Shown: positions 6,510-34,809 of the stretch, one piece after another
Layout: every line of letters starts with the position of its first letter
Numbering within the stretch: position 1 is the stretch's first letter
Source of the DNA: an uncultured Alphaproteobacteria bacterium
Lineage (GTDB): Bacteria > Pseudomonadota > Alphaproteobacteria > RF32 > CAG-239
Assembly: GCA_944391505.1 (NCBI GenBank)
Contig: CALXTV010000001.1
Span: forward strand, 34,651 to 98,650
Reading direction: 5' to 3'
DNA: 64,000 nucleotides
Position numbers and translations under genes: made by a program
Notes under the pieces: generated by a model
Databases searched by the model: none
What the model saw: the letters and a program-made list of their open reading frames with translations, nothing else
Told to the model about the DNA's origin: nothing

Positions 6510-6854
6510 ATGCAGCATTGCATAGAACCCAACATCAAAATCGAAGACACCGGTTTTGGCTATACCATGTCCATCATCGGTGGCAAATATAAAATGATAA
6601 TTCTCTATTGGCTGGGCGAGTTCGGGGTCCTGCGACACAATGCGCTGTATCGGCTGATTGGCAAAATTTCTTTCAAAATGCTGAGTTCTACCTTAAAAGA
6701 ACTTGAAGCGGACGGTCTGATTCTCCGCAAAGTATACCCGCAAATGCCGCCCAAAGTCGAATACAGCCTGTCTGCCAAAGGAAAATCTCTGATACCGATG
6801 CTGTTCGAACTTTGTGATTGGGGAGACCAAAACCGTCCGAAAATTAAATCATAG
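6510..6854 (+). CDS. HxlR-family winged-helix regulator
   Basis: IIGGKYKMIILYWL...LSSTLKELEADGLILRKVYPQMPPKVEYSLS. Confidence 0.9.
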   Translation: MQHCIEPNIKIEDTGFGYTMSIIGGKYKMIILYWLGEFGVLRHNALYRLIGKISFKMLSSTLKELEADGLILRKVYPQMPPKVEYSLSAKGKSLIPMLFELCDWGDQNRPKIKS

Positions 6855-7403
6855 GGAAGCTCCTAAATCTTTTGCCTCAGACAAAGCCTTATGACCTTTA
6901 ATATCACCAATTTTAAACACGCCGCCGGCAATAACGCATCCGAGATTATCCCACCCCATTTGCGCAAGCAACGCATTAAAATAATCTTTAACCGGTTTTG
7001 CATTATCCAGCGTATCACCTTCGGCCGCCATTAACAAAAGACACCCTTTCTTCGGATTTTCATAATTTTCATTACATTCGGCGACGGCAAATAAACGGTC
7101 AAAGGCACATTTCAGTTGGCCTGAAATACTCCAATAATACATCGGCGAAGCCAAGACCAAAATATCGGCCGCAGCATATTCCGGATAAATTTTCTGCATA
7201 TCGTCTTTCTGCACACACGGACTGCTTTTGTCTTTACCGCCGCCAAAGCAACCCAAACAGCCATGAATATTCATTTTTTGCAAATCAAAACATTTTACTT
7301 CATGTCCCTTGCTTTGAGCTCCTTCCGTAAAGGCTTCAATTAAAGCCTTGGTATTGCCGTTTTGCCGCGGACTTCCGTTCAAAATCACGATTTTTTTAGT
7401 CAT
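6849..7403 (-). CDS. Flavodoxin-family / NADPH-dependent FMN reductase (iron-sulfur flavoprotein-like)
   Basis: LNGSPRQNGNT, CxGCxxC...C (CLGCFGG...CVQKDDM), ASPMYYWSISGQLK; start MTKK at 7403. Confidence 0.85.
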   Translation of the reverse strand: MTKKIVILNGSPRQNGNTKALIEAFTEGAQSKGHEVKCFDLQKMNIHGCLGCFGGGKDKSSPCVQKDDMQKIYPEYAAADILVLASPMYYWSISGQLKCAFDRLFAVAECNENYENPKKGCLLLMAAEGDTLDNAKPVKDYFNALLAQMGWDNLGCVIAGGVFKIGDIKGHKALSEAKDLGASL

Positions 7404-7550
7404 TGCTGCTCCTTTCGTCATAATCAAATCAAACCGTATATACCTTAATCCAAACTTCTCATTTCGCAATACTAACAATTTCGTATAATACTAACCTTTG
7501 AGTGAGTTATCCTAACCATAACAACACAATATCCATTAAATCGAGGGAGA

Positions 7551-10028
7551 CATTTAGCTTCCTTTCCAAATCAGATATGCTATACTTAGACACACAATCA
7601 GGCATCATTGAACCGGGTTATAGCTTCCTTTCCAAATCAGATATGCTATACTACTGCACAAATTCAGAATGTAGACGCCGATGTTATAGCTTCCTTTCCA
7701 AATCAGATATGCTATACTTTAAAAAAACCTTTCTACCTAATAGGGTTCGTTATAGCTTCCTTTCCAAATCAGATATGCTATACTACACTTAATACAGGCA
7801 TGCTCATCCCAATTGTTATAGCTTCCTTTCCAAATCAGATATGCTATACTAACACCATGAATGTGAACCGTGTTTGCATAGTTATAGCTTCCTTTCCAAA
7901 TCAGATATGCTATACTTTCGGGGTGCGGAAAAACCACAAAAGCCCGGTTATAGCTTCCTTTCCAAATCAGATATGCTATACTTCCGGAAGATTCAGCTTT
8001 GCAAGAAATTAAGTTATAGCTTCCTTTCCAAATCAGATATGCTATACTCTTTTGAATATTTTCCTTTGTAGTCTTTATGTTATAGCTTCCTTTCCAAATC
8101 AGATATGCTATACTTGGCCGGATTAAAAGCCATCATTGAAGCCAGTTATAGCTTCCTTTCCAAATCAGATATGCTATACTGTTATTGTCGGCATTTATGC
8201 TTACCAGTATGTTATAGCTTCCTTTCCAAATCAGATATGCTATACTACGTGTTTAGCTTGAACATGGGTCGCTTGCGTTATAGCTTCCTTTCCAAATCAG
8301 ATATGCTATACTCGGTTTTCGCCGCCGACCTGGTTAACTTCCGTTATAGCTTCCTTTCCAAATCAGATATGCTATACTGGTTCGGAAGTACGAAACACCA
8401 AATTATTTGTTATAGCTTCCTTTCCAAATCAGATATGCTATACTGGCACCACAGTCACATTTGACCCGACAGACGTTATAGCTTCCTTTCCAAATCAGAT
8501 ATGCTATACTAATGAGAACCGCAACGTTTGGCGCGGTGATGTTATAGCTTCCTTTCCAAATCAGATATGCTATACTAATCATCTTTTGGATTAAAAGAAT
8601 TAATGAGTTATAGCTTCCTTTCCAAATCAGATATGCTATACTTGTCAGTTCATCGTCACGAAATGGTCAGAAGTTATAGCTTCCTTTCCAAATCAGATAT
8701 GCTATACTGACAGAAGAATTTATGCCCGAACAGCGGCAGTTATAGCTTCCTTTCCAAATCAGATATGCTATACTAGCGCAAAAGTCTATTCAGATAATGA
8801 ATGGGTTATAGCTTCCTTTCCAAATCAGATATGCTATACTAGATCAATAAATACAGCCTGCCAAAACTCAGTTATAGCTTCCTTTCCAAATCAGATATGC
8901 TATACTTTTTTATCACAAAAGACCAGACATTAAAGAGTTATAGCTTCCTTTCCAAATCAGATATGCTATACTGGCACCACAGTCACATTTGACCCGACGG
9001 ATGTTATAGCTTCCTTTCCAAATCAGATATGCTATACTCAAATGAAACGTCTTATGGCTGCTGGTCTTGTTATAGCTTCCTTTCCAAATCAGATATGCTA
9101 TACTAAAATTGGTCGTATGCGTGGGATTACGTCTGTTATAGCTTCCTTTCCAAATCAGATATGCTATACTTCATTCATAAGTAATATTCAAACAGTTGGA
9201 GTTATAGCTTCCTTTCCAAATCAGATATGCTATACTCACATTATCACGCCATAATCTTTGGATGGAGTTATAGCTTCCTTTCCAAATCAGATATGCTATA
9301 CTCACATTATCACGCCATAATCTTTGGATGGAGTTATAGCTTCCTTTCCAAATCAGATATGCTATACTTACTCAGACAATGATTGGCTTACAAATCCTGT
9401 TATAGCTTCCTTTCCAAATCAGATATGCTATACTTCTCTTAGCTTCTCTTCCTTTTGGTACAGAGTTATAGCTTCCTTTCCAAATCAGATATGCTATACT
9501 AAAAAAAAGAGACTGGAGACTGTGGAAAACGTTATAGCTTCCTTTCCAAATCAGATATGCTATACTGAAAAATATGAAAATAATGAAATCATATTTGTTA
9601 TAGCTTCCTTTCCAAATCAGATATGCTATACTATCTGAAGAGAATATGTTAACCGGAATGTTGTTATAGCTTCCTTTCCAAATCAGATATGCTATACTAA
9701 CTTTCGGATGAATAATATGATTGGAGGAGTTATAGCTTCCTTTCCAAATCAGATATGCTATACTCAAGCTTTAGCAAACGCAATTTTGGAAGCAGTTATA
9801 GCTTCCTTTCCAAATCAGATATGCTATACTTGATATTCTGGTTCGACGATGCCTGTCTGTGTTATAGCTTCCTTTCCAAATCAGATATGCTATACTAAAA
9901 GTATATGAAAGAAACAAAGCAATTAAGTTATAGCTTCCTTTCCAAATCAGATATGCTATACTTAAAATTAAAGAAATTGAAAACCTCGGAAAGTTATAGC
10001 TTCCTTTCCAAATCAGATATGCTATACT
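7551..10028 (+). CRISPR. Type II-C CRISPR array: 38 repeats of 36 bp (GTTATAGCTTCCTTTCCAAATCAGATATGCTATACT), 37 spacers of 30 bp
   Basis: Strict 66-bp period checked from 7551 to 9993; first repeat degenerate (CATTTAGCTT...), so the cas-distal end is the old end; orientation from tracrRNA complementarity. Confidence 0.99.
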
Positions 10029-14497: not shown

Positions 14498-14513
14498 AGT
14501 AACCGAATTTCCG

Positions 14514-14749
14514 CGGATACGAAAAAAGACGCTGTTATCTAGCGTCTTTTTAATCAAAATGGCGGAGAGATAGGGATTACTCTGCGCTAAAGCTTGAGTT
14601 GCACAGGCACTCATCGGCTTTCCAAGCCGACCGGCGTACTCCCGTCCGCCTTTCGCTGGTAGTCGAACCCTATCTCTAGGGTTCAAATCCAACCTTCCTC
14701 ATCATTTACAACAAAACCCGCACAAGGCGGGCTTTGTTGTAAATGGCGG
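14514..14749. repeat. Left 236-bp direct repeat (island boundary; contains tRNA-Ser 3' fragments and two hairpins)
   Basis: Matches 34488-34723 at offset 19974 with one substitution (ttatctagcg vs ttatccagcg); ends in TGGCGG, the reverse complement of the tRNA 3' end. Confidence 0.97.
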
Positions 14750-15018: not shown

Positions 15019-16778
15019 ATGAGTTTTCAAGCGCCTTTAACAATTAAAAAAGCCCTAGAAAGAATAGATAAGAGAGAACTATTACTACCTGCAATCCAAA
15101 GAGAATTTGTATGGAGTGCAGATGATATAGAATTATTATTTGATTCTTTAATGTGCGATTTTCCAATAAACTCATTCCTTTTCTGGAAGGTAGATAATGC
15201 TGAGAATAAAAATCAGTATAAATATTACCAATTTCTAACTAAATATATTGAATATTACCACGAAACTGCTGATTCTTTTAATACAAATGGAGTAAATGAC
15301 TTTTGTGCTGTACTGGATGGACAACAAAGACTAACAGCGCTATATCTTGGGCTAAAAGGATCTTATGCATATAAAAAACCTTATGCTCACTGGGATAATT
15401 TAGATAACTATCCAGAACGAAAATTATATTTAGATATCTGGAAAAAATATAAAGAATATACAGAAGAAGAACATAAAAATATTGCTGAATATGATGATGA
15501 AAGAGAATATGGCTTCTACTTTTTAACAGAACAAGAGTTTAATAACTTAGGTGGTTCCTCACGTTTCTTTAAAGTAGGAGACATTTTAACAGAAAATACA
15601 AAGATGTATCCTGTCTCATAAAAACATTAGAAGAACAGTTTCCCAACAACAAATTTGCTCATGATACCATAGCAAAGTTATATGAGATTATTTATAACAA
15701 ACCTTTAATCAACTATTATCTTGAAGAAACAGAAGATTATGATAAAGCACTAAAAATCTTTATAAGAACAAATAGCGGAGGAGAAAAATTATCTTTTTCA
15801 GATCTGCTAATATCTACAATTATTTCAACTTGGACTTCCGTTGATGCAAGAACAGAATTTAATAATTTAGAAAAAGAAATAAAAAACATGGGATTTTATA
15901 ATTTTTCGAAAGAATTCATTGTTCGATGCGCTCTCCTCGCTTATAGCAAAGATATAAAATTTAAAGTTAATAATTTATCTTCTGAATGTTTATTTCAATT
16001 TGAAAAAGAATGGAATTCTGAAGGAGGGTTAAAGGCTACAATTAAAGAAGCTTTTACATTATTAAAAAATTACGGCCATAATGATAATACAATTACATCA
16101 TACAATGCAATTGCCTTAATTGTTTATTATTTAAATCACTCTGGAAAAACCAAACAATTTTGTGATAAGGTGGCGTATAAACAAGATAGACTTATTATTT
16201 TAAAATGGCTAAATATTGTATTTCTAAAAAAGATATTTGGAGGCCAATCTGATTCAATTTTAAAAGAGATTCGTGATGTAATACAAAGATCTAAATCTCG
16301 TAACTTTCCTCTAGAAGAAATAAAAGAGAATCTAGAAGGAAAAAGAAAATCATTAAAAGTTGATAATGAATTTATAGAGAGCTTATTGTTTGAACAAAAG
16401 GAATCTAGATATGCCTTTCCAATTTTATCTTTACTATATGATGGTTCAGATTATAGAGCAACAAAGCACAAAGATCACCTTCACCCCGAATATTGCTTTA
16501 GCAAAAAAGAACTTAAGAAACTAAATCTGTCAGAGGATGACCTCAAATTCTATCAAGATAAAAATAACTGGAATAGCATTCTAAATCTTCAATTACTTTA
16601 TGGTAATGACAACGAAGCAAAAAATAAAAAATCTTTAAAAGAATGGATAGAAAAAAACAATATAAATTGTAAAGAACAGCTAATCCCTTCTAAATTTATC
16701 GATATTAAAGATTTTCGTAAATTTATTGAAGAACGCAAAAAAATCCTTACACAAAGGCTATTAAAAGCATTTGAATAA
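15019..16778 (+). pseudogene. DUF262 + DUF1524/HNH (GmrSD/SspE-like) nuclease with a single frameshift
   Basis: LPAIQREFVW and VLDGQQRLTAL in 15019-15621; the -1 frame continues KDVSC...IFIRTNSGGEKLSFSDLL into ORF 15888-16778 (HKDHLHP, NWNSILNLQLL); frames join near GAAAATAC at 15592-15599. Confidence 0.85.
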
Positions 16779-16788
16779 AAATATTTCT

Positions 16789-19218
16789 TTATGGTAAAAA
16801 CTTATTCAATTCGAATCTAAAAAAGTCATCCGAAGCATTTTTATATTCTAAAAATTTTTCATTATAAGTTAAATTTTTATATTCATCTATTGACAAATTA
16901 CATATTTGGTCATCTTTAACTAATTTATTTATAACATGCAAACTTAATCCCAATTTGCTTAAAGATAATATTAAAGGATCGTTTGTGCCATATACCAAAT
17001 CATTATAAAGTTGCTGAGATATAAGTTCATAATCTAACATTAACTGAAAAAACTTATTTAATTTAAAACTGATAAAGTCATCTTCTAACTTTATTTTTAT
17101 TATAGATAAATTAACTATATAAGAATAATTTTTCGACCTAAGATTGACATAGAAATTATTATAACCGGAAATATTACCTCTATCATCACATTCTCCATAA
17201 GATGACCCAACATATAGAAAAGGATTTGTACTTAATCTTTTAATGCGATATAAATATCTTGCCGTTAACGAAATTTTTTCTTTCAATGAAAGTTTTCGAT
17301 GTTTAACTATTAATTTATGATAATAATTTCTACTTATTTCATTATCCAAACGTTTAAATTCATCGTCTTTAATTAAAGCATTTAATTGACCGATAAAAAC
17401 ATAATTTAGCAAATCAAATACATATCTTTGATCAGAAAGAGTTCCATATCTTTCTTTATATCTACTAATTCTTAGCCAAATCTCAGAACATAAATCATTT
17501 GAAAGATTATAAATTGTATTCATGCTAAGCTTTAGCATATTTTGTTTAAGTAATAAAATATTATCGTCTGTCTCCTGAAATATAAAATTTTCATTATTAA
17601 TTATCTCTTCCAGTACTACTTTTTCTTCTATTTTTTTATTTTCAATATTAAAGTTATCTAGTAATGGATTTTGAATGTCATCCTGAAAATCAGACGTTTT
17701 TAAAAGTTTTATTTTATTTTCCATACTACAAGTACAAAATTCCCCATGATTTTCAACAAAATGCACCTTAGGCATCAATTTGGATAAATCATCAATAGAG
17801 TTTGTAAATACCATATTTAAACGATTAACTCGTCCTATTAAATTTATTAAAGAATTTTTATTTAAATTACGAGAATCTACTATAAACAATGAGTCAAAAG
17901 GTAAATTAATGCCTTCTAGTATCACATTATTTGCAATCAGGTATTTTATCTGCGGAATTCTATTAAACTTAAATTCCAAATAATCTTTTATATCATCCGG
18001 TAACTTTCCATGAATATAAATGATTCCTTTCTGCAAATACTTAGACACATAAAAATCTTTATGAACATGTTTATTAAGACTTTCAATAACCTGATGAATT
18101 TCAGGACAATCAATTTCTTGTGATATAGTTTCAAACAAAGTCTTCGCAAAATGTTCAATTTTACGAGGAGTATATAAATATATAAAATTTTTATCAGTAG
18201 CTTTATTTTCTATATATTGCAAATAACTTCCGTCAAAATGAGCATCTTTAATTAAAGCGTTAAAAAAACGGTTATAAATAAAAACATCTCCGTTATCTGC
18301 ATATTCGTATACTATAGGAACTTTAATATTGAAAGCTATTTTATACTCCCGTATTTCCTGATCTGATAAAGAAATGTTTTTACTATCTTGTACTAATGGC
18401 GATAAATATAACATTTTTGCACGATTATTTCTATGCTTTACTAACCTTATAAGCCTAGCTAATAAAATGCTTCTATCAGTATTTTCTAATAATTTATGAG
18501 CTTCATCCACATATAAAATATCAAAACACAAACTATTGTATTTTTCCAACAATCTTAAAGCTCTTTCTTGAGTAAATACTGAGATAAAACAATTGTCGCT
18601 TTCATTATACATTTCATCATGTATTAACACACGAATACGAGGGAATGCCTTTTTTATATTCCTATACGTCTGCATCAATAGTGATTTTGTAGGAACAATT
18701 ACAGCTATTTTACTATAAGTATTAATATGTTGTTTTATATGTTCTATAATAAGTTTACTTTTTCCAAAAGACGTTGGAGCAATATAACTTACATATGATT
18801 GATCCGTAGATAATAGCTCTTTTCTTGATATATTTTGTTCTTTTGTTTCGATAATACCGTCATTACCAAAAAAAGTCTCGGTAGCTACAGTTAAAGTTTC
18901 AGTAGTTATATCAGATATTATTCCCTTATTGTTTATAATAGCATTTGAGATTGGGTAAAATCCAAAATTTACAGATAAATCATATAATGGTTGCCAATCA
19001 TGAAATAAAATTGAATATTTTAATATAATAAAATATGCCAATTCAAAAGAAGTTTTATAACTTTTATCTTTTTGATATTGCTTTATTAAAACAATAGCTA
19101 AACTTAAAACAAACTGTTTTTCTGCATTATCTAAATGCTGAGATAGAAATAATTTATTTATAACATTTTGAATGGAGGAAATAGTTTTAAGATTTGATAT
19201 TTTTGTGGCTTCACTCAT
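16789..19218 (-). CDS. SF2 DEAD/DEAH helicase, Hachiman HamB-like
   Basis: APTSFGKS, VDEAH, IHGKLP, ILEGINLP, IGRVNR; overlaps the upstream nuclease gene by 8 bp. Confidence 0.7.
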   Translation of the reverse strand: MSEATKISNLKTISSIQNVINKLFLSQHLDNAEKQFVLSLAIVLIKQYQKDKSYKTSFELAYFIILKYSILFHDWQPLYDLSVNFGFYPISNAIINNKGIISDITTETLTVATETFFGNDGIIETKEQNISRKELLSTDQSYVSYIAPTSFGKSKLIIEHIKQHINTYSKIAVIVPTKSLLMQTYRNIKKAFPRIRVLIHDEMYNESDNCFISVFTQERALRLLEKYNSLCFDILYVDEAHKLLENTDRSILLARLIRLVKHRNNRAKMLYLSPLVQDSKNISLSDQEIREYKIAFNIKVPIVYEYADNGDVFIYNRFFNALIKDAHFDGSYLQYIENKATDKNFIYLYTPRKIEHFAKTLFETISQEIDCPEIHQVIESLNKHVHKDFYVSKYLQKGIIYIHGKLPDDIKDYLEFKFNRIPQIKYLIANNVILEGINLPFDSLFIVDSRNLNKNSLINLIGRVNRLNMVFTNSIDDLSKLMPKVHFVENHGEFCTCSMENKIKLLKTSDFQDDIQNPLLDNFNIENKKIEEKVVLEEIINNENFIFQETDDNILLLKQNMLKLSMNTIYNLSNDLCSEIWLRISRYKERYGTLSDQRYVFDLLNYVFIGQLNALIKDDEFKRLDNEISRNYYHKLIVKHRKLSLKEKISLTARYLYRIKRLSTNPFLYVGSSYGECDDRGNISGYNNFYVNLRSKNYSYIVNLSIIKIKLEDDFISFKLNKFFQLMLDYELISQQLYNDLVYGTNDPLILSLSKLGLSLHVINKLVKDDQICNLSIDEYKNLTYNEKFLEYKNASDDFFRFELNKFLP

Positions 19219-19963
19219 TCTCAGCTCCTAAATACTGCATAAACATTTCATAACTATTTTGAGTAACACAAATAACATGAATTTTTTTTCCTTGTAATAT
19301 AGAAATTCTCTTAATTGATTGTACTATTTCATCATGATTCTGTGGCGTCCAAACTCCATTCAAAAATATTGTTGCACTTGGTATAATGTTATTGTCATCA
19401 ATACTTTGATAACGATGATTGATAAAATCATCTGACAAACTTTTTAATCTATCTCTCAACTCTTTTTTAGTTCCTACTGCTCTTGCATGATTATATGCAT
19501 TCAACCAAGGATTATTACTCACTTCTGTAGTTATTTTTGCTTTGACGTCATTATACGCTTCTCTTATCTTAGAGGCATGCGTTATACCAGAAGTAGTTAT
19601 CAATCCAGATTTACTTTCCATAAACCAAAGATCATCTTCTATAGAATACAATCCATCGAATCCCTTTTTCAAAGAATTTTCCTCAAGATTAAAAAATAAA
19701 CACTCTTGTTTATAGCCTTTATATTTTAAATATAAATGTATAAAAAACTCCGCTATAGAGCCTATTATTTTGTTTTGATCTCCCCATCTTTCTATGCGGC
19801 CTTTTAAATCCAATTTTATGGTTGATAGATCTCCGTCTTCTCCAATACATATTTGATGAATATTTTCATCAATAAACTGTTTCAATTCCTCTGTAATAGT
19901 TTCAATATCAATTACACTTATTTCAATTTTATCGTCCACTGTTTGTGTAACATTAAATACCAT
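19211..19963 (-). CDS. PD-(D/E)xK nuclease, Hachiman HamA (DUF1837)-like
   Basis: IAEFFIH...KKGFDG...LWFMESKS; coupled to the helicase. Confidence 0.6.
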   Translation of the reverse strand: MVFNVTQTVDDKIEISVIDIETITEELKQFIDENIHQICIGEDGDLSTIKLDLKGRIERWGDQNKIIGSIAEFFIHLYLKYKGYKQECLFFNLEENSLKKGFDGLYSIEDDLWFMESKSGLITTSGITHASKIREAYNDVKAKITTEVSNNPWLNAYNHARAVGTKKELRDRLKSLSDDFINHRYQSIDDNNIIPSATIFLNGVWTPQNHDEIVQSIKRISILQGKKIHVICVTQNSYEMFMQYLGAENE

Positions 19964-23589: not shown

Positions 23590-23910
23590 TTATTTCAAAA
23601 CTTCAATAAATTTGGATAAGGTATGAATTTGTTCATCCGAAAGGTGCCTAATATTTGCAATCAACAAGGACTCTTCAGCTGCACGTTTGGGGCTAATGTT
23701 GTCATCAACATTATCATCTAAAATCATGCTTAATCGGCAATTAAGAGCTTTTGTTATATCGACCAAGGTCTCAAAATGTGGATAATTGACACCTCTTTCT
23801 ATGTTTGATATAGCCTCAACAGAAACATCACATCGCTCAGCTAAAACTTCTTGTGTCATTTTAGCCGCTTGTCTAATAGCCTTAATTCTTAACCCGATCT
23901 TTTTCTTCAT
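23590..23910 (-). CDS. XRE/Cro-C1 HTH regulator
   Basis: IGLRIKAIRQAAKMTQEVLAERCDVSVEAISNIERG. Confidence 0.9.
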   Translation of the reverse strand: MKKKIGLRIKAIRQAAKMTQEVLAERCDVSVEAISNIERGVNYPHFETLVDITKALNCRLSMILDDNVDDNISPKRAAEESLLIANIRHLSDEQIHTLSKFIEVLK

Positions 23911-23960
23911 GTTTTACCCCATAATTAGAAGTTTAGCTTAAAGTTTTTGCTTGAAAGCGG

Positions 23961-24000
23961 AGTAAAACTTGTATAATTTTTATGTAATAGAAGTTTTACT
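23961..24000. promoter_or_regulatory. Putative operator flanking the -10 box of the operon promoter
   Basis: Perfect inverted repeat AGTAAAACTT (23961-23970) / AAGTTTTACT (23991-24000) around TATAAT (23972-23977). Confidence 0.6.
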
Positions 24001-24030
24001 TAATAAAATAAAAATCTATAGGCTAACATA

Positions 24031-24927
24031 ATGAAAAATCGAGCAATATCTGAAAAATTTTTTTATGAGTTTAAAAGCGGAAAGTATCAAAACATCCTAC
24101 AAACTGTAAAGCAAGACGATGATTTAATTATGTGCCTGCGAGGTGATTATATTACCATATATTATAAGAGTATGCGTATATTGGAAATATCCGAAAATGG
24201 CGAATATGATGTTGATAAAAACTACGGCATTATTCCTCCAAACGATAATACAAATTGGATAGAATATTTCAAAAATGCAAAATTTGCCTTGAGTTCCTAC
24301 AATAAAACTAAACAAATTAATAAACTTGAAAAGGAAGTTCAACAAGCGATTGTTAAAGAAAACAACACAAGCTCTATCTGCAATGAAACCGATTACTTTA
24401 TTATTGATATAGAATATACTCAGTCGGAATTTGATGGTAGATTTGATGCATTAGCTGTCTATTGGCCTAAAAACAAACGCAAAAACGGCCATGACCTACA
24501 ACTAGCGTTCATTGAAGTTAAAGCCGGCAATAATGCTATTGGAGGGACTTCCGGTATTGTAAAGCATTATGAATCGGTTATTGAATTTTTGAATAATCTT
24601 ACCAAGAATAATGAAAAAGAACAATTTATCCAAGATATTGAAAAAGTGATAGCTCAACAGCGAGACTTGGGATTATGGAATATTCCTCATAATAAACACG
24701 AAATAACTTTGTCTCGCTCAACCAAGCCTCAATTAATTTTTATTCTTGCCAACTATAATCAAAACTCAACAGTATTACGCAATGAATTAAATCTTTTTCC
24801 CAGTATTAACAAGAAATATAGTAATGAGCTTCCTTTTGAATTGAAATTTGCTACGTCATCTTTTGTCGGATATGGCTTATATAGTAACGGAATGATTACT
24901 ATAGATAATATATTAGATAAAAAATAA
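24031..24927 (+). CDS. Hypothetical protein with a PD-(D/E)xK-like nuclease motif
   Basis: EKEVQQ...IIDIEY...GRFDALAV...LAFIEVKAG. Confidence 0.6.
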   Translation: MKNRAISEKFFYEFKSGKYQNILQTVKQDDDLIMCLRGDYITIYYKSMRILEISENGEYDVDKNYGIIPPNDNTNWIEYFKNAKFALSSYNKTKQINKLEKEVQQAIVKENNTSSICNETDYFIIDIEYTQSEFDGRFDALAVYWPKNKRKNGHDLQLAFIEVKAGNNAIGGTSGIVKHYESVIEFLNNLTKNNEKEQFIQDIEKVIAQQRDLGLWNIPHNKHEITLSRSTKPQLIFILANYNQNSTVLRNELNLFPSINKKYSNELPFELKFATSSFVGYGLYSNGMITIDNILDKK

Positions 24928-24936
24928 GGAACTAAA

Positions 24937-26133
24937 ATGAAGGCATGTATTAGAAGAGGAGCAAACCAAATCGGAGGATCTGCTGTTGAAATTATAGCAG
25001 ATAATCAACAAAGGTTGATTATAGATATTGGGTTACCTCTTGATGCAGAGGAAAATACTCAAGACCTTCTTCCTCAAATTGACGGTCTTAAACATAAGAC
25101 ACCTGATTTGCTAGGTATCTTAATATCTCATCCCCATCAAGATCATTATGCCTTAGGATTACATATTGATAAAGACATCCCTGTTTTTATGAGCCATGCG
25201 ACATCAAAAATAATGGAAGTTGCCACACAGCATAATATTCCTGACGCATTTGTCTTTAGCAATATCAATATCTTTGAAAATCAAAAAAGTTTTAAAATCG
25301 GGAGCTTCAACATTACACCCTATTTGGTTGATCATTCGGCCTATGAGGCTTATGCTTTTTTAATTGAAGCTGACGGCAAACGTTTGTTTTACAGCGGAGA
25401 TTTTCGTGCACATGGTCGAAAATCCAAATTATTTGAATCATTCATTAAAAATCCTCCGCAACATATAGATACATTATTAATGGAAGGCTCTTGTTTAGGA
25501 CGAGATAAATCCGAGCAATACGAAAGTGAAACCGAGTTGGAAGAAAAGTTTTTTGATATATTTAAACAAACAAGGGGGATAAGCCTTATTCAAACATCTT
25601 CGCAAAACATTGATAGAATTGTTACCATCTACCGAGCATGCAAAAAAAGTAACCGCACATTGGTAATGTCTGGGTATACAGGACATATTCTGCAATGTTT
25701 AGAAAATTCACATTTACCAAATTTTACATGGCCGGATGTTAAAAAAATGAGCCAATCAGTTACAAGAAAACATGAAATATCTGTTGAAATGATAGAAAAG
25801 TCTCCCGATAAATACACAATCCTTTTGGGCGGCCAGATATTTAATATGCTAAAAAACAGTTTCCTTTTAAATAATGAAGCTTCATTTATTTATTCCATGT
25901 GGGATGGTTATAAAGAACTATATAAAGAGCGACTGGAACTAATTCAAAATAAAGGGGTTAATATGTTTGATATTCACACCTCAGGACATGCAGATATTCC
26001 AAGTCTTCAAAAATTTGCATCAGCTCTTAATCCTCATCAATTGGTTCCGATTCATACTTTTCTCCCACAAGAGTTCAAAAAGCTATTCAATAATGTAGTT
26101 ATTTATGAAGATAATCAAATATTTACAATATAA
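24937..26133 (+). CDS. MBL-fold metallo-hydrolase, beta-CASP / RNase J-like
   Basis: SHPHQDHY, VDHSAY, YSGDFRAHG, HTSGHA and PIHT motifs. Confidence 0.9.
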   Translation: MKACIRRGANQIGGSAVEIIADNQQRLIIDIGLPLDAEENTQDLLPQIDGLKHKTPDLLGILISHPHQDHYALGLHIDKDIPVFMSHATSKIMEVATQHNIPDAFVFSNINIFENQKSFKIGSFNITPYLVDHSAYEAYAFLIEADGKRLFYSGDFRAHGRKSKLFESFIKNPPQHIDTLLMEGSCLGRDKSEQYESETELEEKFFDIFKQTRGISLIQTSSQNIDRIVTIYRACKKSNRTLVMSGYTGHILQCLENSHLPNFTWPDVKKMSQSVTRKHEISVEMIEKSPDKYTILLGGQIFNMLKNSFLLNNEASFIYSMWDGYKELYKERLELIQNKGVNMFDIHTSGHADIPSLQKFASALNPHQLVPIHTFLPQEFKKLFNNVVIYEDNQIFTI

Positions 26134-26144
26134 GGACAAAGTAA

Positions 26145-26843
26145 ATGGATTTAAAAAACAACTTAGAACTTATAATCGGTGGTATTGCATCTACTGTCGC
26201 CATGGCCGCAATTATTTTTAGATTTGTCTTTTTTGAAATAGATTTAAGCACAACAGCTGATTTTATAAAAGACTTTTCAGAAATTATTGTATCGGTTTTA
26301 GTCTTTTTTGTTGCCGTTAAAAGTATCTTAAGCCAGAGTAAAAAAAAGGAAACTTTCAAAAAAGTTTTTGATGAAGAGCTTCAAGCATGGATGCAACGCA
26401 ATCGCCCACTGATTTCTAAAGAGAACCGTTTTCAGGTTGAAAATGCTGACAGATATTTTATTTTGTCGGATCATGATCACATTTTTGATATTGGAGAAGA
26501 TTTTCAAGACGACAAAAAGTATCAAAAAGGTGTGTTTGTTCAACTTCCCCACACATTTACAACTAATGATAAAATTATTTTCTTTATGAACAAAAGTACA
26601 TTTATGGCACGAGCCAAGGCTAAAGACAGTAATGTAGAGGCAGAAATAGATAAACTCATATATCGAACAGCAAATTGTATTAGTGCCAAATTTGGTAAAG
26701 AATTATTTGAGGCAAGTGGAGATCCCAAACATCATCAAATCCATGTTAAAATAAAGACCCGAGATCTTGATACACCTGAAGATGCTCGAACAATAATAAA
26801 AATGCTTGATTATGTAATGATTTTATACTTAGCAGCAGCTTAA
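26145..26843 (+). CDS. Hypothetical protein with two N-terminal TM helices
   Basis: Hydrophobic segments LIIGGIASTVAMAAIIFRFVFF and IIVSVLVFFVAV followed by a soluble domain. Confidence 0.7.
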   Translation: MDLKNNLELIIGGIASTVAMAAIIFRFVFFEIDLSTTADFIKDFSEIIVSVLVFFVAVKSILSQSKKKETFKKVFDEELQAWMQRNRPLISKENRFQVENADRYFILSDHDHIFDIGEDFQDDKKYQKGVFVQLPHTFTTNDKIIFFMNKSTFMARAKAKDSNVEAEIDKLIYRTANCISAKFGKELFEASGDPKHHQIHVKIKTRDLDTPEDARTIIKMLDYVMILYLAAA

Positions 26844-26872
26844 ACTTCAACTCAAACCGAAAGGAAAAAGAC

Positions 26873-27175
26873 ATGAGAAATTTTAAAATAGAAAGAACCG
26901 GAGTCGTTCGAGATGAAAGAGGAATGAAAGTTGGTACGGTTCAAAGAAATACCCTAAGAGATGCTAGAGGATCCCGCCTCGCAGAAATATCTGGAGATAG
27001 AATCAAGGATAGTCGAGGTTTAACTTTAGGAGAAATTAGCGGCTCAAGAATAAAAACGAGACGAGGAAATACAGTTATGGAAATTGATAAAATTCCTCTT
27101 GATTACGAAATGCCAGTTTCTCCGGCAATGGCCGCAGCAATCATGCATTTTTTTATCAAACCGATTTTTGATTAA
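26873..27175 (+). CDS. Small beta-repeat protein (beta-flower-like)
   Basis: About four ~15-aa repeats: VRDERGMKVGTVQ / LRDARGSRLAEIS / IKDSRGLTLGEIS / IKTRRGNTVMEID; SD GAAAGG. Confidence 0.6.
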   Translation: MRNFKIERTGVVRDERGMKVGTVQRNTLRDARGSRLAEISGDRIKDSRGLTLGEISGSRIKTRRGNTVMEIDKIPLDYEMPVSPAMAAAIMHFFIKPIFD

Positions 27176-27197
27176 AATTTCAGCTTAGTTATAATTG

Positions 27198-27227
27198 AAA
27201 ATGCCGAGTACTTACTCGGCATTTTTT
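27198..27227 (+). terminator. Intrinsic terminator ending the four-gene operon
   Basis: AAAATGCCGAGTA / TACTCGGCATTTT hairpin with T-run. Confidence 0.8.
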
Positions 27228-27341: not shown

Positions 27342-27707
27342 ATGGCATTTGAAAAATTTATTATCCAAACCAAAAAAAACTTCCCAACTGCATCAATTTC
27401 AACGCTCGGAAGACTTAGCCTGAATGAGGCTGCAATCTCTGCTTTTGGCTTACAAACAAAAAACTTTGCAGAACTTTTTTACGATTCGGAAAAGGCGCTT
27501 ATTGGCATAAAATTTTTGAATTCAGAGACAGAAAACAGTCTAAAAGTCCAAAGACGTGACAACTCCGGTATGTTTTTATCGGTTAAAAGCTTCTTCAAAG
27601 CCTATCAGATTGACTACTCAACTACATATTTTTGTGAAGTATCACAAGATGAAAAGGATAAAGACTTTTTGATAATAAACTTAAACACCAAGACAGAAAG
27701 GAGATAG
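27342..27707 (+). CDS. Hypothetical protein
   Basis: 121-aa ORF with SD AGGAGG and upstream TTGACA-17-TATACA. Confidence 0.7.
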   Translation: MAFEKFIIQTKKNFPTASISTLGRLSLNEAAISAFGLQTKNFAELFYDSEKALIGIKFLNSETENSLKVQRRDNSGMFLSVKSFFKAYQIDYSTTYFCEVSQDEKDKDFLIINLNTKTERR

Positions 27708-34354: not shown

Positions 34355-34487
34355 ATTTTCCTCTCAAGTGACTCTCCCAAAATCGGCAATGTATGTAACT
34401 GCCGGAAATTTTGCACTTTCCAACATAAAACGAGCTTACCATAGTCATTTCGGCAAAGTCAACCGCCGACAAAGCCAGCGTTTCCGC

Positions 34488-34723
34488 CGGATACGAAAAA
34501 AGACGCTGTTATCCAGCGTCTTTTTAATCAAAATGGCGGAGAGATAGGGATTACTCTGCGCTAAAGCTTGAGTTGCACAGGCACTCATCGGCTTTCCAAG
34601 CCGACCGGCGTACTCCCGTCCGCCTTTCGCTGGTAGTCGAACCCTATCTCTAGGGTTCAAATCCAACCTTCCTCATCATTTACAACAAAACCCGCACAAG
34701 GCGGGCTTTGTTGTAAATGGCGG
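34488..34723. repeat. Right 236-bp direct repeat, overlapping the tRNA-Ser 3' end
   Basis: Copy of 14514-14749. Confidence 0.97.
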
Positions 34724-34809
34724 AGAGATAGGGATTCGAACCCTAGGTACCCCGATAGGAGTACAATTGATTTCGAGTCAACCGCATTCGACCACTCTGC
34801 CATCTCTCC
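34718..34809 (-). tRNA. tRNA-Ser(CGA)
   Basis: GGAGAGATGGCAGAGTGGTCGAATGCGGTTGACT-CGA-AATCAATTG...GGGTTCGAATCCCTATCTCTCCGCCA; long variable arm, encoded CCA. Confidence 0.97.

Follow-up and report, generated by a model that had tools for sequence, protein, structure and literature searches.

We describe a compact operon of four genes (g1 to g4), read together with a divergently transcribed regulatory gene, at positions 23590-27227 of a 64,000-nt stretch of DNA from an uncultured alphaproteobacterium (the window, in whose positions all coordinates below are given). The genes encode a predicted PD-(D/E)xK-type nuclease, a beta-CASP metallo-beta-lactamase (MBL) nuclease, a protein with two transmembrane helices (2-TM) and a small protein of the predicted beta-flower type; the regulatory gene encodes a helix-turn-helix (HTH) protein of the XRE family. 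With moderate confidence we read the cassette as an accessory conflict module that spreads horizontally, most likely directed against phages or other mobile genetic elements, in which the XRE protein would silence a composite g1-g2 nuclease that g3 and g4 would couple to the membrane. As such it would be a kind of inducible nuclease-based defence operon, unnamed so far.

Central to this reading is the association of g1 with g2. Relatives of g1 were searched in contigs representing one genome per species, among which 257 genomes encode them (Chloroflexota, Desulfobacterota, Bacteroidota, Firmicutes, Planctomycetota and one Bathyarchaeon), and the neighbourhoods of the best 80 loci were examined. 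A g2 homologue lies on the same strand at 64 of these 80 loci, whose genomes represent many phyla and include one archaeon, in 53 instances with a gap of less than 300 bp; at 10 loci with adequate flanks it is absent. Both gene orders are found among the close pairs, g1 preceding g2 in 24 and following it in 29. The two genes are also naturally fused: the C-terminal portion of one such protein (P0054, 702 residues) is 62% identical to g2 of the window. A second fusion (P0120, 515 residues) joins g1 to an RNase_T (DEDDh) exonuclease, and RNase_T genes are recurrent neighbours of the g1-g2 pair. Linkage and fusions together suggest that the robust unit is a composite nuclease, consisting of an endonuclease-like g1 and an exonuclease-type partner, and this endonuclease-plus-exonuclease logic is supported alike by the g1-g2 fusion, the g1-RNase_T fusion and the RNase_T neighbours. 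Upon de-repression g1 (the putative endonuclease) and g2 (an exo- or endonuclease) would work as one enzyme in a "cut-and-chew" manner, with g1 cutting and g2 degrading from the fresh ends.

The pair keeps varied company in other phyla. Regulators flank it there, of the WYL-WCX type at 13 loci and also of the HTH_11 type, and defence-type neighbours include HsdR and McrBC. In seven loci (L019, L027, L039, L043, L058, L071 and L084) the g2-g1 pair is adjoined by an IetA-like double AAA+ ATPase of ∼600-750 residues (PADLOC IetA, 1e-41), in many cases together with a WYL regulator; the system may exist here in a larger form that includes an ATPase. One g1 protein is fused to ankyrin repeats (P0106, 574 residues), and several others, 450-505 residues long, carry extensions without a Pfam match. 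At one locus (L002, 7893-12819) g2 ends after ∼60 residues and is followed by Phage_capsid_2 and Bbp19 genes of microvirus-like aspect, an arrangement that could stem from insertion of a microvirus-like sequence into g2 or from a chimeric assembly.

A first-pass annotation of the window had proposed that g1 carries a D...EVK nuclease motif. The motif (D139...E162-V-K164) is indeed present and, in an alignment of 22 relatives, is invariant, the conserved positions being E100, Q104/Q105, D126xE128, R137-F-D139, E162-x-K164 and H179. An AlphaFold2 (AF2) model of g1 with a predicted local distance difference test (pLDDT) score of 91.5 places a small N-terminal alpha/beta domain ahead of an alpha-beta-beta-beta-alpha-beta core (helix 99-113; strands 122-131, 136-144 with D139, and 156-165 with E162 and K164; helix 176-192; strand 234-240). 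The model thus has the hallmarks of the PD-(D/E)xK fold, namely this core, an acidic residue in beta2 and (D/E)xK in beta3. No family in Pfam, PADLOC, PHROGs or NCBIfam matches g1: its sole PADLOC match is a spurious one to Cmr5 (E = 0.0096), and the 22 relatives, scanned singly against Pfam, return only marginal matches to PDDEXK_13 and PDDEXK_9 (E ∼0.01-0.02). A Foldseek search of the model against the PDB returned nothing at E < 0.1; the weak matches, all at E > 0.1, are to BsoBI, HincII, EcoO109I, RecB-family and other PD-(D/E)xK proteins. Against BFVD there is one weak match, to Gp54 of phage G (E 6.8e-3), and a g1 profile run against PDB sequences gave no meaningful match. Motifs and model therefore point to g1 as a new, hitherto undescribed family of PD-(D/E)xK type. 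It is a large one: among 1.84 billion representatives, a profile search recovered 2,055 clusters at 50% identity with E <= 1e-3, and 596 with E <= 1e-30.

The rate at which g1 changes also sets it apart. In two closely related loci (L010 and L011) g1 is 91% identical while XRE, g2, g3 and g4 are 98-100% identical, and the differences, together with a 4-residue indel, are concentrated at residues ∼155-290. Between lineages the identities are 42-58% for g1, 69-74% for g2 and 81-84% for g3.

For g2 the full set of MBL and beta-CASP motifs had been claimed, and all of it stands: D30, H65xH67xD69H70, H133, D155, E183, H351 and H373, which comprise MBL motifs 1-4 and beta-CASP motifs A, B and C, are kept in 63-64 of 64 homologues. 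Pfam matches exceed the cut-offs for both Lactamase_B_2 (49.5 against 27) and RMMBL (24.8 against 21.6). By sequence the closest solved structures are 2AZ4, the uncharacterised EF2904 of E. faecalis (2e-18), followed by RNase J. Orthology with RNase J was considered and rejected: the NCBIfam models TIGR00649 and NF047419 score 60.2 and 48.5 bits against cut-offs of 400 and 820, and g2, at 398 residues, is far shorter than RNase J profiles and chains (546-574 residues). The motif-C histidine and the RMMBL match hint at an RNA substrate. Beta-CASP enzymes act on DNA as well, and the substrate may instead be DNA.

The organization of the locus is that of an operon (Table 1). All four genes are co-oriented, with gaps of 9, 11 and 29 nt, and are closed by a terminator whose hairpin has a folding energy of -20.2 kcal/mol (z = -8.3) and a T-run downstream; open reading frame (ORF) coordinates and RNA folding thus agree with the layout first described. 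The XRE gene is separated from g1 by a divergent intergenic stretch of 120 bp. Within it, again as first described, a perfect inverted repeat with 10-bp arms (AGTAAAACTT at 23961-23970 and AAGTTTTACT at 23991-24000) flanks the TATAAT box; extra AAGTTTT half-sites lie upstream of the promoter (23926-23950). A simple consensus scanner missed both the promoter, which has a 15-nt spacer, and the terminator.

Table 1. Features of the cassette and of the element that carries it.
Feature	Position	Strand	Basis or remark
Putative XRE-family HTH repressor, 106 aa	23590-23910	-	Divergent from operon; Pfam HTH_3; PADLOC HTH_VI, capH-like
Predicted operon promoter: TTGAAA 23951-23956, TATAAT 23972-23977	23951-24000	+	Bracketed by 10-bp inverted repeat
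g1, 298 aa, predicted PD-(D/E)xK-type	24031-24927	+	Motifs and AF2 topology
g2, 398 aa, beta-CASP metallo-beta-lactamase nuclease	24937-26133	+	Pfam Lactamase_B_2 and RMMBL, motifs
g3, 232 aa, two predicted N-terminal transmembrane helices and cytoplasmic alpha/beta domain	26145-26843	+	Hydropathy, AF2
g4, 100 aa, predicted beta-flower protein	26873-27175	+	Pfam Bflower_2 (sub-cut-off), hairpin repeats
Intrinsic terminator closing operon	∼27197-27227	+	RNA fold, T-run
g5, 121 aa, behind terminator, outside cassette	27342-27707	+	Element backbone gene
Integrated element, 20.2 kb	14508-34723		243-bp direct repeats, low G+C, adjoins tRNA-Ser

The control region is conserved among sibling elements, that is, relatives of the element in which the cassette resides. 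XRE orthologues occupy the equivalent position with 68-69% identity, and the inverted repeat is retained in four siblings (L001, L009, L011 and L015). In a fifth (L018) both arms are altered (AGTGAAAATA and TATTTTTACT) with the palindrome preserved, a compensatory change. The protein itself matches HTH_3 at 54.9 bits (cut-off 23; E 9e-15). These features suggest a repressor of the XRE/Cro-CI type with a palindromic putative operator at the operon promoter: once bound, the divergently encoded protein would cover the -10 box and repress the operon. Defence operons typically keep potentially toxic nucleases under strict transcriptional control (PMC9122601, PMC11662680).

The remaining two products are small and rare. 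Hydropathy bears out the 2-TM layout that had been claimed for g3 (hydrophobic segments at residues 7-32 and 40-65), and its soluble domain is well modelled by AF2 (pLDDT ∼90); Foldseek found nothing in the PDB at E < 0.1 for this model. The family, previously undescribed, comprises eight clusters only, which invariably stand beside nuclease genes, and it was not found in IMG/VR. A pore-forming abortive-infection effector is one option for g3; a membrane tether or gate of the nucleases would fit equally well. For g4 the Pfam family Bflower_2 (PF21785) scores 36.7 bits (E 4e-9), just short of its cut-off of 38, and a 99% identical cluster already carries the PF21785 annotation. The protein consists of four 16-residue hairpin repeats with D/T-x-R-G tips, followed by a hydrophobic C-terminal segment, probably a helix, and its family counts only five clusters. 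Beta-flower proteins, described in 2023, are Tubby-related and have [DNEQ]xxG hairpin tips and a C-terminal hydrophobic helix, with function and genomic context unreported (PMC10584680). The first-pass annotation had suggested that the repeat fold of g4 might bind a ligand; by analogy with the beta-flower proteins (PMC10584680) the hydrophobic C-terminus is most likely a helix enclosed by the barrel rather than a ligand site. The cassette provides a first operonic context for a protein of this predicted type. We regard g3 and g4 as a rare accessory pair, yet not as random cargo. Together they would couple the nuclease to the inner membrane, as a tether and gate or as a sensor.

The recurrence of the four parts was traced from a metagenome scan for g3 relatives. 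The whole cassette is found again in two loci (L094 and L095), between holA/RNase_T and clpX/clpP and outside any TerL element, with identities to the window of 42% (g1), 70% (g2), 81% (g3) and 69% (g4). A second architecture occurs in human-gut contigs (L098-L103), where the order is a 97-residue beta-hairpin repeat protein (weak Bflower_3 match, E = 0.005), a 235-residue PD-(D/E)xK-like protein, a g2-like MBL (36% identical to the window) and a g3-like protein (44%). The 235-residue protein differs from g1 and has the motif D125...E138-x-K140. Spacing is tight: two of the junctions leave 1 and 0 nt, and at another the genes overlap by 4 nt; in two of these contigs (L101 and L102) a divergent gene matches the XRE protein of the window at 28-29% identity (blastp), and in a third (L099) a gene of equal size stands there. 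No protein of this alternative architecture has a PADLOC match. A third order (L091) runs from a g3-like gene through a 230-residue PD-(D/E)xK-like protein to a g2-like MBL, and a mobilisable islet (L089 and L092) contains an integrase, a g3-like gene, an 85-residue cysteine-rich triple-repeat protein, PDDEXK_4 and a relaxase.

Small repeat protein, PD-(D/E)xK protein, beta-CASP MBL and 2-TM protein therefore recur as part types, with the order shuffled and members swapped. This supports a four-component idea for the variant with g3 and g4, whereas g1-g2 is the minimal, widespread form. The first-pass annotation, which saw the four genes as one system, is thus upheld in that the part types do recur together, in a second gene order also, and is to be amended in that the widespread unit is the g1-g2 pair alone. 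One contig with the alternative architecture (L099) also encodes, directly downstream and on the opposite strand to the cassette (6688-8568, minus strand), a DncV-like/SMODS nucleotidyltransferase of CBASS type and a 239-residue gene product.

Comparison with known systems was made with the hidden Markov models of PADLOC-DB v2.0.0. None was matched by g2, g3 or g4, and g1 has only the spurious Cmr5 match noted above; the first-pass annotation likewise did not recognise the combination as a named system. Among papers that mention beta-CASP, a literature search joining this term with anti-phage and phage-defence terms returned only the type VII CRISPR paper on Cas14 and one unrelated paper. Like RNase J, CPSF-73, SNM1/Artemis and EF2904 (2AZ4), g2 has the MBL and beta-CASP domains with all seven motifs; it differs from RNase J in scoring far below the family cut-offs and in being always coupled to a PD-(D/E)xK-type partner. 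Cas14, likewise a beta-CASP protein and the only such nuclease that the search found described as an immune effector (PMC13069675), is closest in that role, but its system is RNA-guided, whereas the cassette has neither Cas5/Cas7 nor a CRISPR RNA and instead pairs its beta-CASP protein with a nuclease and a membrane protein. An MBL-fold enzyme is required in the anti-phage operon of the Hachiman variant HamMAB, and there is also an AVAST-associated MBL (PMC13069673); there the MBL pairs with a helicase/protease or with a STAND NTPase, whereas the cassette has no helicase or NTPase.

With Shedu, GAPS4 and the type II and type IV restriction enzymes, g1 shares D...ExK on an alpha-beta-beta-beta-alpha-beta core, and residence in defence islands, and it would share with them nuclease activity that is inducible or guarded. 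It differs from PD-(D/E)xK defence nucleases in having an N-terminal domain of its own, in being partnered by a beta-CASP protein, and in the lack of PADLOC and Pfam matches. Identity with GAPS4 can be dismissed, since GAPS4a has an HGxD-SxK motif and a ring-forming partner, GAPS4b (PMC13748975), whereas g1 carries D...ExK and is paired with a beta-CASP MBL. The divergent small HTH repressor with its palindromic putative operator resembles the control of operons with regulators of CapH, CapW and BrxR type (PMC9122601, PMC11662680), and in sibling loci WYL-WCX regulators replace or join the XRE gene; unlike CapH-type operons, the cassette has no CapP-like protease beside the XRE gene. Finally, g4, as a candidate beta-flower protein, resembles members of the beta-flower/Tubby-like clan (Pfam CL0395; PMC10584680) in its hairpin-repeat tips and hydrophobic C-terminus, and is unlike them in being operonic with nucleases and a 2-TM protein.

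The cassette is carried by an integrated element whose cargo is rich in defence genes. The R-M (restriction-modification), Hachiman-like and GmrSD-like surroundings of the first-pass annotation can now be specified as an EcoO109I R-M system, a HamB helicase with a 250-residue partner, and a split HEC-05/GmrSD-like gene. The backbone consists of g5, ParB-MTase, DUF5681, TerL, DUF2924 and a serine recombinase, without capsid genes. Among 61 related genomes only one has g1, while TerL relatives occur in eight. Three related elements have ParB-MTase, DUF5681, TerL, DUF2924 and a recombinase 80-95% identical, and lack everything from the XRE gene and g1 to g5, which excludes the g1-g2 pair as a core component of the TerL/ParB-MTase/recombinase backbone. 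From the single occurrence of g1 and from these elements without the cassette it follows that the cassette is accessory cargo, not backbone. Some siblings keep XRE-g1-g2 and have a g3-g4 slot that is empty or holds a WYL-WCX regulator and RNase_T genes.

Several points weigh against the view that the cassette serves anti-phage defence. In other phyla, many of the genes adjacent to g1-g2 have housekeeping roles; searches of phage and plasmid collections recovered no g1. The nuclease fold of g1 is suggested by motifs, modelled topology and sub-threshold Foldseek matches. The recurrence of the four parts comes from few lineages, with tiny g3 and g4 families; moreover, hhalign aligns the D...ExK regions of g1 and the 235-residue protein without significance (E = 0.67), so that we treat the two as analogous partners and not as proven homologues. 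Two independent lineages of TerL-bearing elements, furthermore, have the cassette immediately under their XRE switch, a placement that would suit a part in the cycle of the element itself as well. The operon might then be the early operon of a satellite-like element: the XRE switch would flip, for example on infection by a helper phage, and the nucleases would hit helper or host nucleic acid or process element DNA, favouring packaging by the element's own TerL to the benefit of the element rather than the host. TerL/ParB-MTase elements with the cassette right downstream of the CI/Cro-like XRE switch are known from Alphaproteobacteria (L001, L003-5 and L009-16) and Melainabacteria (L022), elements of this kind also carry the non-orthologous architecture of L099-L103, and the element in the window combines TerL and DUF5681 with an absence of capsid genes. 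We nonetheless judge this explanation unlikely: the four-gene cassette also stands at a plain chromosomal site (L094), most g1-g2 pairs belong to genomes without a TerL/ParB-MTase backbone, the sibling TerL/ParB-MTase/recombinase elements of three relatives do without the cassette, and some siblings have nothing, or a WYL regulator and exonucleases, in place of g3-g4.

SNM1-family beta-CASP enzymes repair crosslinks, and a damage-induced pairing of an SNM1/PSO2-like nuclease with a structure-specific endonuclease could process lesions or stalled forks. DnaQ/RNase_T-type exonucleases, recurrent partners of the pair and even fused to g1, would suit such a role, as would the WYL-WCX regulators at 13 loci, given that regulators of this type reportedly sense single-stranded DNA in CapW-type systems (PMC11662680). 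A repair function is nevertheless quite improbable in view of the extremely patchy distribution (one of 61 relatives), the carriage of the cassette on mobile elements among defence genes, the faster divergence of g1 than of its partners, a 2-TM partner that would be unexpected for a repair enzyme, and the RNA-type motif-C histidine and RMMBL match of g2. Potentially toxic nucleases under tight repression, a small partner (g4), a membrane protein and a mobile-element location would also be compatible with an addiction module of toxin-antitoxin (TA) type that stabilises the element, the toxin being the nucleases and/or the 2-TM protein, held in check by the XRE protein or g4. This we hold to be very improbable: four genes including two large enzymes are atypical of TA modules, the two g1-g2 orders and the fusions indicate a composite enzyme and not a toxin-antidote pair, and the cassette is found at non-mobile sites too. 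None of these three alternatives is mutually exclusive with defence. Returning to the defence module, a more specific version, in which g4 and g3 would keep the composite nuclease bound to the inner membrane until an entering phage causes its release or activation, as a four-part form of innate immunity, is a tentative proposal that we find plausible but doubtful.

Were protection from phage to be conferred, the catalogue of prokaryotic immunity would gain a large family that crosses domains and has had no name until now: g1, whose members, in 2,055 clusters at the 50% level of identity, mostly accompany a beta-CASP nuclease and in some cases are fused to one. There would then be a modular class of "2-TM + repeat protein + nuclease" systems, whose minimal form, g1-g2, spans ∼2,000 clusters in bacteria and archaea. 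The variant with g3 and g4 offers a first genomic context for the beta-flower fold and a tractable case of nucleases that would be coupled to a membrane protein; should the membrane-held, four-part arrangement apply, it would provide the first biological role for that fold. Modular evolution of defence would be illustrated by the way in which PD-(D/E)xK partners without demonstrable homology combine with one and the same set of MBL and 2-TM parts. For the host, an alphaproteobacterium of the gut that is uncultured and has a genome of 1.7 Mb, a single 20-kb element would deliver four defence systems together.

The element itself is delimited by direct repeats at 14508-14749 and 34481-34723, 99.2% identical over 243 bp (blastn), and lies beside a tRNA-Ser gene (34718-34809). 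Membership of g5 in the cassette was considered and dropped: g5 has no family match and a TTGACA-like sequence upstream, is kept before ParB-MTase in sibling elements, is present in siblings without g3 and g4 (L001, L015 and L016) and is missing from L094. The three related elements without the cassette (L115, L116 and L117, from relatives G020, G002 and G024) are mosaic, with recombinases 80-95% identical and ParB-MTase and TerL only 44-58% identical; their gene order also differs, in that the recombinase is divergent from ParB-MTase and additional genes follow TerL. The HEC-05/GmrSD-like ORFs (15019-15621 and 15888-16778, with a gap of 266 bp) match positions 20-201 and 301-593 of one 600-residue PADLOC profile and are probably a disrupted or split defence gene. 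At 16789-19963, on the minus strand, the HamB-type helicase (809 residues) overlaps the upstream gene for its 250-residue partner, which has no PADLOC or Pfam match and may be a divergent HamA.

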